This document shows positions 1,200 to 2,402 of a stretch of DNA of 44,330 nucleotides, piece by piece (the stretch's first letter is position 1; each line of letters opens with the position of its first letter). The stretch is from a virus. Its lineage: Duplodnaviria > Heunggongvirae > Uroviricota > Caudoviricetes. The notes beneath the pieces are model-generated. The model ran no database searches, was not told where the DNA came from, and saw nothing but the letters and a program-made list of their open reading frames with translations. The stretch is taken from the IMG/VR virus record IMGVR_UViG_2541047714_000011. One strand, given 5' to 3'. The position numbers and the translations under genes were made by a program.

Positions 1200-1245
1200 G
1201 GGTAAAAAGTGGATAAAATAATTTTACCCACCGGATTTTTACCCA
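1200..1245. promoter_or_regulatory. GGGTAAAA-type repeats at attL/intS start (putative recombinase or RDF binding sites)
   Basis: gggtaaaaa at 1200-1208 and inverted ttttaccca at 1222-1230 and 1237-1245, the last overlapping the intS ATG; same motif repeated at attR. Confidence 0.4.
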
Positions 1246-2402
1246 TGCTCACCGTTAAGCAGATTGAAGCAGCAAAGCCGAAAGAAAAACCATACCGCCT
1301 TCTCGATGGTAATGGCCTGTACCTTTATGTCCCTGTGTCAGGGAAAAAGGTATGGCAGCTTCGCTACAAGATTGACGGTAAGGAGAAAATCCTGACCGTC
1401 GGGAAATATCCGCTTATGAGTTTGCAGGAGGCAAGGGATAAAGCATGGACCGCGAGGAAAGACATCTCGGTTGGCATCGATCCGGTAAAAGCGAAAAAGG
1501 CTTCGTCTAACAACAATTCCTTTAGCGCCATTTACAAGGAATGGTACGAGCACAAGAAGCAAGTATGGTCAGTAGGGTATGCGACTGAACTTGCAAAAAT
1601 GTTTGATGACGACATTTTACCTATCATCGGCGGCCTTGAAATTCAGGATATTGAGCCGATAAAACTGCTGGAAGTAATCCGCAGATTTGAAGATCGCGGT
1701 GCAATGGAGCGAGCCAACAAAGCCCGCAGAAGATGCGGAGAGGTTTTCCGTTACGCTATTGTCACTGGTAGGGCTAAATATAACCCGGCACCTGACCTTG
1801 CTGACGCCATGAAGGGATACCGCAAGAAGAACTTCCCGTTTCTCCCAGCAGACCAGATCCCTGCATTCAACAAAGCACTGGCAACATTTTCAGGAAGCAT
1901 CATATCGCTCATTGCGACCAAAGTTTTACGCTACACAGCCCTAAGAACGAAAGAGCTTCGCTCCATGCAATGGAAGAACGTCGATTTTGAAAACAGGATT
2001 ATCACTATCGACGCCAGTGTGATGAAGGGCCGCAAAATTCATGTGGTCCCGATGTCAGACCAGGTGGTTGAACTTCTCACTACGCTAAGCTCAATCACCA
2101 AACCAGTCTCAGAGTTTGTTTTTGCCGGGCGCAACGATAAGAAGAAGCCAATCTGCGAGAACGCGGTTCTACTTGTGATCAAACAAATCGGCTATGAGGG
2201 TCTGGAAAGCGGTCACGGATTCAGGCATGAATTCAGCACGATTATGAACGAGCACGAATGGCCTGCTGACGCTATTGAAGTGCAACTTGCACATGCCAAC
2301 GGCGGATCTGTGCGTGGAATTTACAACCATGCTCAGTATCTCGATAAGCGCAGAGAAATGATGCAGTGGTGGGCGGACTGGATTGATGAAAAGGTGGGCT
2401 AA
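1245..2402 (+). CDS. intS: Tyrosine integrase, KplE1/CPS-53 IntS-like (P4 family)
   Basis: Track ORF 1209-2402 (GTG); ATG at 1245 gives 385 aa starting MLTVKQIEAAKPKEK, as recalled for IntS; C-terminal catalytic region with R..HxxR..Y pattern; adjacent to tRNA. Confidence 0.85.
   Translation: MLTVKQIEAAKPKEKPYRLLDGNGLYLYVPVSGKKVWQLRYKIDGKEKILTVGKYPLMSLQEARDKAWTARKDISVGIDPVKAKKASSNNNSFSAIYKEWYEHKKQVWSVGYATELAKMFDDDILPIIGGLEIQDIEPIKLLEVIRRFEDRGAMERANKARRRCGEVFRYAIVTGRAKYNPAPDLADAMKGYRKKNFPFLPADQIPAFNKALATFSGSIISLIATKVLRYTALRTKELRSMQWKNVDFENRIITIDASVMKGRKIHVVPMSDQVVELLTTLSSITKPVSEFVFAGRNDKKKPICENAVLLVIKQIGYEGLESGHGFRHEFSTIMNEHEWPADAIEVQLAHANGGSVRGIYNHAQYLDKRREMMQWWADWIDEKVG

Follow-up and report, generated by a model that had tools for sequence, protein, structure and literature searches.

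Probable arm-type integrase sites at both ends of an argW prophage and their overlap with the intS promoter

A short repeat, GGGTAAAA, stands in tight clusters at the two ends of the prophage contained in the IMG/VR virus record IMGVR_UViG_2541047714_000011 (the window, that is, the whole stretch of 44,330 nt that was analysed), and the question is which protein these repeats serve. A sequence-only reading had taken them for arm-type sites of the integrase or for binding sites of the RDF, through which recombination would be coupled to the expression of both genes. The analysis described here favours one of these two proteins: with high confidence, the repeats are regarded as the arm-type sites of the N-terminal arm-binding domain of the integrase IntS, in a recombination module of the KplE1/HK620/Sf6 type located in argW.

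The window was found to hold a full-length HK620/Sf6-like (P22-like) prophage in argW, with about 41.5 kb between the core copies; the prophage is probably active. The integration target, a tRNA-Arg(CCT) gene, was located by using ARAGORN at 1009-1083 (+), and K-12 annotates argW at the homologous place. The attL core CTGCAGGGGACACCA (1069-1083) is the last 15 nt of argW, and the same 15 nt, an identity read in the sequence, form the attR core at 42627-42641. The HK620 and Sf6 records label CTGCAGGGGACACCA "attP core", and K-12 annotates the attR core copy, at the homologous place, as the pawZ pseudo-tRNA fragment. At the left prophage end lies intS (1245-2402, +), which encodes a tyrosine integrase with an N-terminal arm-binding domain (Pfam PF13356, Arm-DNA-bind_3, residues 2-86, E = 2.3e-25; in addition PF22022 and PF00589) that is 97-98% identical to the HK620 and Sf6 integrases. 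At the right end lies the RDF gene torI (42353-42553, +), the product of which (66 aa) is 100% identical to K-12 TorI and to HK620 HkaC. Integration in argW, the shared core, int and RDF genes at opposite ends and orthologues of IntS and TorI together identify the module as one of the KplE1/HK620/Sf6 type.

Exact copies of GGGTAAAA were found near the attL core at 1200-1207 (+; P'1), 1222-1229 (−; P'3, in the intS 5' leader) and 1237-1244 (−), and near the attR core at 42548-42555 (+) and 42560-42567 (+; P2, on the P arm). The attL copies lie 116-161 nt to the right of the attL core and the attR copies 59-79 nt to the left of the attR core, P2 being 59 nt from it. The occurrence of the repeats at both prophage ends, as claimed in the sequence-only reading, is real, with five exact copies clustered by the att cores. 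Its count of three copies at attL stands for exact copies; the total is four with a degenerate copy, GGATAAAA at 1211-1218 (+; P'2), which has one mismatch to GGGTAAAA. Except for P'1, the site numbers are our own. The attL set thus consists of two direct and then two inverted copies with start-to-start spacings of 11, 11 and 15 nt; the attR set consists of two direct copies, 12 nt apart from start to start. The spans of 9 nt given earlier were one base longer than the exact 8-mer, although a longer repeat unit of about 10 nt does exist: TTTTACCCAT (1237-1246) and ATGGGTAAAA (42546-42555) are reverse complements of each other without a mismatch (the pair was read on HK620). Site P'4 is therefore given as the extended unit ATGGGTAAAA at 1237-1246 (−), kept in all relatives, and site P1 on the P arm as ATGGGTAAAA at 42546-42555 (+). 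At attL this unit takes in the first two letters (AT) of the intS start codon, so that the last copy indeed extends into the ATG (1245-1247), as had been proposed. The repeat motif, YGGGTAAAA, is unrelated to the core CTGCAGGGGACACCA and is present on both arms.

The closest system with published experiments is KplE1 (CPS-53) of E. coli K-12. The two elements have 100% identity in both arm regions (P', 1196-1250; P, 42541-42575), IntS residues 1-85 agree at 84/85 positions and TorI at 100%, and the argW core, −35 box, −10 box and TorI pentamers are shared; the three substitutions in attL lie elsewhere (1138, 1150 and 1170). Because the arm regions, TorI and the IntS arm domain are identical or nearly so, the experimental results for KplE1 transfer to the window. 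The elements differ in extent, KplE1 being a 10-kb remnant and the element in the window a full-length P22-like prophage of about 41.5 kb, and in the flank to the right of attR, where the window has a DUF4942 fragment and a 415-aa oligosaccharide MFS transporter gene (possibly cscB) and K-12 has dsdC. Among phages, the attL and attR regions are 96.5-99% identical to the attP of HK620, Sf6, HK633, IME10, Kapi1 and others; for HK620 and Sf6, DNA identity of 96-99% extends over attP, int and the RDF gene. In the HK620 GenBank record (2001), the stretch of these very repeats is labelled "repeat_region attP", and PintS lies under a promoter feature labelled "prophage excision". In the HK620 and Sf6 records attP is contiguous, whereas in the window its arms are separated as attL and attR. 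The arm sites are thus already known for the identical K-12 sequence, and they have been annotated in HK620 since 2001.

For KplE1 attL, the arm-type P' sites of IntS were described as all containing TAAA, with P'1 overlapping the −10 box (TAaAAa) of PintS, a sigma-70 promoter with the −35 box TTGACA and transcription starts at T and A (2464536/7; Panis et al. 2010, PLoS Genet, PMC2951348). Work cited in that paper reports that IntS binds the P' arm sites of K-12, the sequence of which is identical (PMC2951348). MG1655 coordinates were transferred to the window with an offset of 2463322 by using the limits of the attL clone (2464344-2464630, −223 to +64), by which the ATG (2464567) falls on window position 1245. 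Mapping from the published "ATG at 2464.565 kb" was rejected: it puts A/A at the transcription start, where the paper has T/A, and the mapping by clone limits was preferred because the T/A start bases and the −10 spacing fit. The −35 box was thereby placed at 1179-1184 (+) and the −10 box TAAAAA at 1203-1208 (+), in the first GGGTAAAA copy (PMC2951348); the starts of intS transcription fall on 1214 (T) and 1215 (A) (+), both covered by the GGATAAAA copy. Integrase sites hence overlap both the −10 box and the transcription start of int, the arrangement of an autoregulated attL promoter.

IntS and TorI each repressed pattL-gfp about 5-fold, and the chromosomal intS transcript was likewise repressed about 5-fold by the integrase (PMC2951348). 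Mutation of single P' sites other than P'1 gave no derepression of intS (PMC2951348), so a regulatory role is demonstrated for the promoter-proximal site(s) only. Both in vitro and in vivo, excision works best within a narrow range of IntS amounts, and it was argued by the authors that autoregulation keeps IntS in this range, so that the supply of TorI governs excision (PMC2951348). Both the arm-type assignment and the suggested coupling of recombination-site occupancy at attL to intS expression are thus borne out by published work on KplE1, the sequences being identical to those of the window (PMC2951348). On the attR side, the minimal 135-bp attR for in vitro excision was made with the left primer attR-IHF2, which corresponds to window 42529-42548 (PMC3509656); both attR repeats are thus inside the substrate, the left edge of which lies shortly before the first of them. 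A 2023 preprint counts KplE1 among the few systems with a "fully characterised" att organisation. Coordinates of the attR sites and the number of P' sites were not found in the PLoS Genet supplements or in the further literature, the primary mapping papers being outside the scope of this survey. Those papers, on the KplE1 IntS arm sites, are reportedly Panis et al. 2007 (J Biol Chem) and 2010 (Virology). Exact site boundaries, the number of P' sites and the map of P sites at attR are accordingly deduced here from a secondary description together with the sequence.

The mechanism best supported is that already published for KplE1. IntS is a hetero-bivalent protein, with its C-terminal catalytic domain on the core CTGCAGGGGACACCA and its N-terminal domain bridging to the arm sites, and IntS, IHF and TorI (the last on separate, GTTCG-type attL sites) assemble an excisive or integrative intasome. 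The P' sites coincide with the intS promoter and leader because intS is transcribed outward from attL: P'1 overlaps the −10 box and the next copy the transcription start, with two inverted copies in the 30-nt leader. IntS occupancy hence represses intS about 5-fold (negative autoregulation), IntS blocking RNA polymerase at the −10 box and the transcription start and TorI blocking the −35 box. The degenerate GGATAAAA copy is presumably bound by IntS, its mismatch in GGG being such that it may bind weakly or not at all; the two leader copies may contribute to intS repression, and the two attR copies would correspond to the published "P" sites, the anchor of the P arm. An RNA hairpin formed by the inverted repeats was considered and rejected by reasoning: a transcript that starts at 1214/1215 holds only the two copies of the same orientation.

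Conservation was assessed in two ranges of divergence. Relatives obtained from IMG/VR by an IntS protein search are all at least 98% identical, so the finding that all four attL 8-mers are invariant in the 42 prophage or phage loci with upstream sequence speaks of invariance at the population level only. More diverged relatives were taken from a tblastn search against phage records, and a composite attP of the window was aligned with those of the Klebsiella phages Chronis and RCIP0114 (about 78% DNA identity) and of the Erwinia phages Midgardsormr38 and vB_EhrS_49 (Int 81% and 75% identical, respectively). In this alignment of five phages (one E. coli, two Klebsiella, two Erwinia), 42 of the 48 columns in the six arm 8-mers are invariant, as against 54/161 in the other non-coding attP (Fisher p = 1.6e-11); the core has 12/15 invariant columns and the −35 box 6/6. 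P'1 is invariant across these genera and identical to that of K-12. Where arm sites of the relatives vary (GGGTAAAG and GAGTAAAA), TAAA is kept, and the layout of two plus four sites is retained in the Klebsiella and Erwinia phages, in which GAGTAAAA stands at the position of GGATAAAA.

Salmonella phage g341c proved the most informative relative. Its Int is 61.5% identical overall and 55% in the arm domain, compared with 82-88% in the arm domain of the other relatives. Its core is unchanged, and its six sites keep their positions and orientations, all of them reading G(T/C)GGGCATAAA-like, with GGGCACAT at the position of GGATAAAA; its −35 box is TTGACT, the exception among relatives in which TTGACA is otherwise invariant. 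The repeats are therefore both conserved among relatives and co-varying with the arm domain of the integrase. Six dispersed sites that change in concert with the arm domain are expected of a protein and a DNA motif that recognise each other.

That the repeats are instead binding sites of TorI is an interpretation with an obvious appeal, as they lie in the att arms, the usual place of RDF sites, and one of them abuts torI. The TorI sites of KplE1 are, however, mapped to other DNA: five sites in two attL blocks upstream of the −35 box, with the pentamers GTTCG, GATCG or GTCCG (PMC2951348). Transferred to the window, block I1;2 lies at 1087-1114 (MG1655 2464409-2464436; GTTCG 1091-1095, GTCCG 1111-1115) and block I3;4;5 at 1150-1177 (GTTCG 1154-1158 and 1164-1168, GATCG 1174-1178), edges that, judged against the pentamers, may be about 2 nt off; repression of PintS by TorI is mediated by sites I4 and I5 (PMC2951348). 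All five pentamers thus lie upstream of the −35 box on attL (1091-1178), none is inside GGGTAAAA, and the repeats fall outside the published attL blocks. The pentamers are conserved independently, 22 of their 25 columns being invariant across the E. coli, Klebsiella and Erwinia phages. In g341c, moreover, GTTCG/GATCG pentamers persist at the block beside the −35 box while the arm sites become GGGCATAAA; two separate recognition systems are therefore at work. An RDF typically has its sites as direct repeats on a single arm, whereas GGGTAAAA occurs on both arms and in both orientations. On this evidence TorI is very improbable as the protein that reads the repeats, and this half of the earlier proposal is abandoned.

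Two further explanations dispense with a dedicated DNA-binding protein. The motif might be a by-product, at attR of a coding repeat in the C-terminus of torI and an hkaB-like ORF, and at attL of A/T tracts in promoter and leader. The hkaB-like ORF (start MGKIAGKI) begins at ATG 42546 in the first attR copy and reads across the attP core; it is open over 46-58 codons in 5/6 lineages and is annotated in four phages (HK620, Sf6, g341c and Midgardsormr38), and P'1 doubles as a −10 box. These observations give the by-product explanation its foothold, against which stands the recurrence of the motif, inverted, in the non-coding intS leader. In addition, only 22 codons of the ORF are left in Erwinia phage 49, in a prophage the ORF ends in a different C-terminus, and every residue that it conserves coincides with a site in the DNA (P1, P2, core or TorI pentamers). 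The coordinated switch of six sites in g341c is explained neither by coding nor by promoter constraints, and IntS-dependent repression and binding are published (PMC2951348). An origin as by-products consequently has scarcely any probability left. As to chance clustering of an A/T-rich 8-mer, two more exact copies, at 14874 (−) and 43713 (−), are isolated and at about the level expected by chance. Frequent occurrence of the motif elsewhere in the prophage had been named beforehand as an observation that would speak against function; these two are the only copies outside the att regions. The total of seven GGGTAAAA copies in 44 kb compares with 1.15 expected and was reached by 0/100 shuffles; five of the seven form two tight clusters near the att cores, three in 45 bp and two in 20 bp, and 0/300 first-order Markov simulations gave two copies within 60 bp. 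The positions are, besides, conserved across four genera, which reduces chance to a negligible candidate.

The first attR copy contains the torI stop codon TAA (42551-42553, in the frame AAT GGG TAA), as had been claimed; the second, 7 nt farther downstream, is clear of the stop. The stop overlap is kept wherever GGG TAA encodes a terminal -G-stop of the RDF, as in E. coli, Klebsiella and Erwinia. The RDF gene of g341c ends 13 nt upstream of the first site, and there the overlap is absent while the sites are kept. The overlap therefore looks like genome compaction rather than a coupling device, and the idea that the attR repeats couple recombination to torI expression was dropped: they lie at the 3' end of the gene, where binding cannot control initiation. 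The torI promoter itself was described as uncharacterised (PMC2951348).

The arrangement has a parallel in the satellite phage P4, the integrase of which belongs to the same family (Arm-DNA-bind_3 N-domain, 34% identity) and is its archetype. The P4 attP record shows two direct repeats, the core, two direct repeats and then one inverted repeat over the int start codon, which is the same architecture; the arm motif, GGGGGCAYAW, is related (G-rich, then CAT/TAA), and the motif sequence and tRNA target differ from those of the window. The arm repeats of P4 attP are reportedly the work of Pierson and Kahn. P4 Int binds there and thereby represses the promoter of its own gene (Piazzolla et al. 2006, in the discussion of PMC2951348). 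According to the same discussion, the P4 RDF, Vis, was proposed to work on the int mRNA; the target of TorI is DNA, at the −35 box. Lambda Int (arm sites P1, P2 and P'1-P'3) is likewise hetero-bivalent, bridging core and arm sites that are unlike each other (PMC2951348). In lambda, however, int lies next to xis, both genes are read from PL in one transcript, and none of the arm sites falls on a promoter of int (PMC2951348). In the window, the int and RDF genes are a whole prophage apart, one at each end, and the P' arm serves as the promoter of int.

By these repeats the functional arms of attL and attR can be recognised, and the value of this result lies mainly in correct annotation. The arm sites explain a low, self-limited level of intS in lysogens, with excision controlled by the supply of TorI, and what has been published as a model for KplE1 can be applied without change to a P22-like prophage that is full-length and probably active. 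Modestly new are a sequence box upstream of torI, given below, and the six-site motif switch in g341c, which, at the level of sequence, suggests orthogonality at the arms among argW-targeting phages: the arm motif is GGGTAAAA in the E. coli, Klebsiella and Erwinia phages, GGGCATAAA in Salmonella phage g341c and GGGGGCAYAW in P4. The co-variation of arm sites and arm domain across genera is a natural example that could guide the design of orthogonal integrases. That the arm sites, and not the core, define mutually orthogonal modules among argW phages with the same core is a speculative extension, to which we assign a low probability. If it is true, the integrase of one prophage would be kept from excising a competitor in the same tRNA gene or from repressing that competitor's integrase gene. 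A weaker variant would have IntS, bound at the torI stop and the start of the hkaB-like ORF, gate a small protein that is made only from the excised circular genome.

Some minor features of the two att regions were also recorded. PintS was not reported by a simple promoter scan, its −10 box TAAAAA being without the required final T; the scan gave another weak match instead (ATGACG-16-AATAAT), and the experimentally mapped promoter was kept. Between P2 and the attR core lies a block, AATCAATCCCCTG (42597-42609), that matches WATCAANNNNTTR with one mismatch and is conserved in the cross-genus alignment; it is a putative IHF site, and the primer name attR-IHF2 implies IHF sites on attR (PMC3509656). 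A one-mismatch copy of the repeat in torI, at 42418, was rejected as an arm site: it corresponds to FGKT codons and is also present in g341c, whose arm motif differs. One-mismatch copies in intS at 1483 and 1615 were likewise rejected, being isolated and explained by coding; the HK620 record marks the homologue of the copy at 1615 as an attP repeat. Upstream of torI, a AGGTTCGATTCCC box was observed at 42322-42334.

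An exact 16-nt copy of the T-arm and T-loop of argW (TTGCAGGTTCGATTCC; argW 1054–1069) was located at 42318–42333, on the upstream side of the excisionase gene torI and about 20 nt from its ATG. Within argW the 16-mer directly adjoins the 15-nt core; the 30 nt that end argW are thus carried by the phage in two pieces, separated by ∼293 bp that contain torI and the P arm. In the record of phage CUS-3 (CP000711.1), positions 40174–40207 match window 42300–42333. What this record labels "attR core", at its end, is the T-arm copy instead of the true core, and torI and the P arm are therefore missing from it.

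The AGGTTCGATTCCC box at this place upstream of torI is also present upstream of the RDF gene in Salmonella phage g341c, there as AGTTCGATTCCC, and occurs as a tandem duplicate in Erwinia phage Midgardsormr38; among the relatives compared, it was not found in the Klebsiella phages or in Erwinia phage 49. The box includes the TorI pentamer GTTCG and could be a TorI auto-operator at PtorI, or a relic of a longer homology between attP and the tRNA gene. A cII box and the pI promoter are annotated at this locality in the HK620 record. Directly 5′ of torI, a hairpin followed by a T run (AAGCCGCCTGATGGCGGTTTTTTATT; 42285–42304) resembles an intrinsic terminator, and this predicted terminator would insulate torI against upstream prophage transcription.

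At the other end of torI, a small ORF begins with an ATG at 42546, within the first attR repeat, and corresponds to hkaB of HK620 (847–987 of the HK620 sequence compared). The ORF overlaps the torI stop and continues through the attP core; in the prophage state its C-terminus is substituted by the host flank. Its GKI-A-GKI stretch is coded by both arm sites of the P arm. Between 46 and 58 codons are open in five of the six lineages, and the frame is cut to 22 in Erwinia phage 49. The hkaB-like ORF is probably a by-product of conserved DNA sites.

Two further blocks were noted, one on each arm. On the P arm, TCCCCTGC (42603–42610) stands 16 nt before the attR core on its left side and matches the core's GCAGGGGA as an inverted complement; it also fits WATCAANNNNTTR with one mismatch. 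A similar AATCCCCTG block lies on the P′ arm (1119–1127) and belongs to a 21-nt direct repeat, 76 % identical, that is shared between the arms. Both blocks are kept across genera, and they may represent either IHF sites or additional core-type Int sites.

All six arm sites of phage g341c (640–900 of the sequence compared) are GGGCATAAA-like, in place of GGGTAAAA, and the arm domain of its integrase is only 55 % identical to that of IntS. The argW core is retained, as are the GTTCG/GATCG pentamers adjoining the −35 box. Judged from these sequences, the g341c arm sites are a natural specificity switch at the level of the arms. Outside the att regions of the window, GGGTAAAA occurs twice, in the prophage at 14874–14881 (−) and in the right chromosomal flank at 43713–43720 (−); both copies are isolated and fit the chance expectation of about one.

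The published coordinates of the attL features (PMC2951348) contain an internal disagreement of 2 nt, the ATG being placed "at 2464.565 kb" versus the 2464567 implied by the clone limits. With the ATG at 2464567, the TSS bases T/A agree with the sequence (window 1214–1217 compared), and the edges of the TorI blocks fall 2 nt off the pentamers (window 1087–1179 compared).

Within the prophage, genes for tRNA-Thr(TGT) and tRNA-Asn(GTT) were observed at 24978–25133 (−). To the right of attR (42642–44330), the chromosome differs from that of K-12, where dsdC stands, and carries a DUF4942 fragment together with an oligosaccharide MFS transporter of 415 aa that may be cscB. This type of flank is the common one: in a set of 5426 complete E. 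coli genomes, 2626 had matches to 80 % or more of the query.
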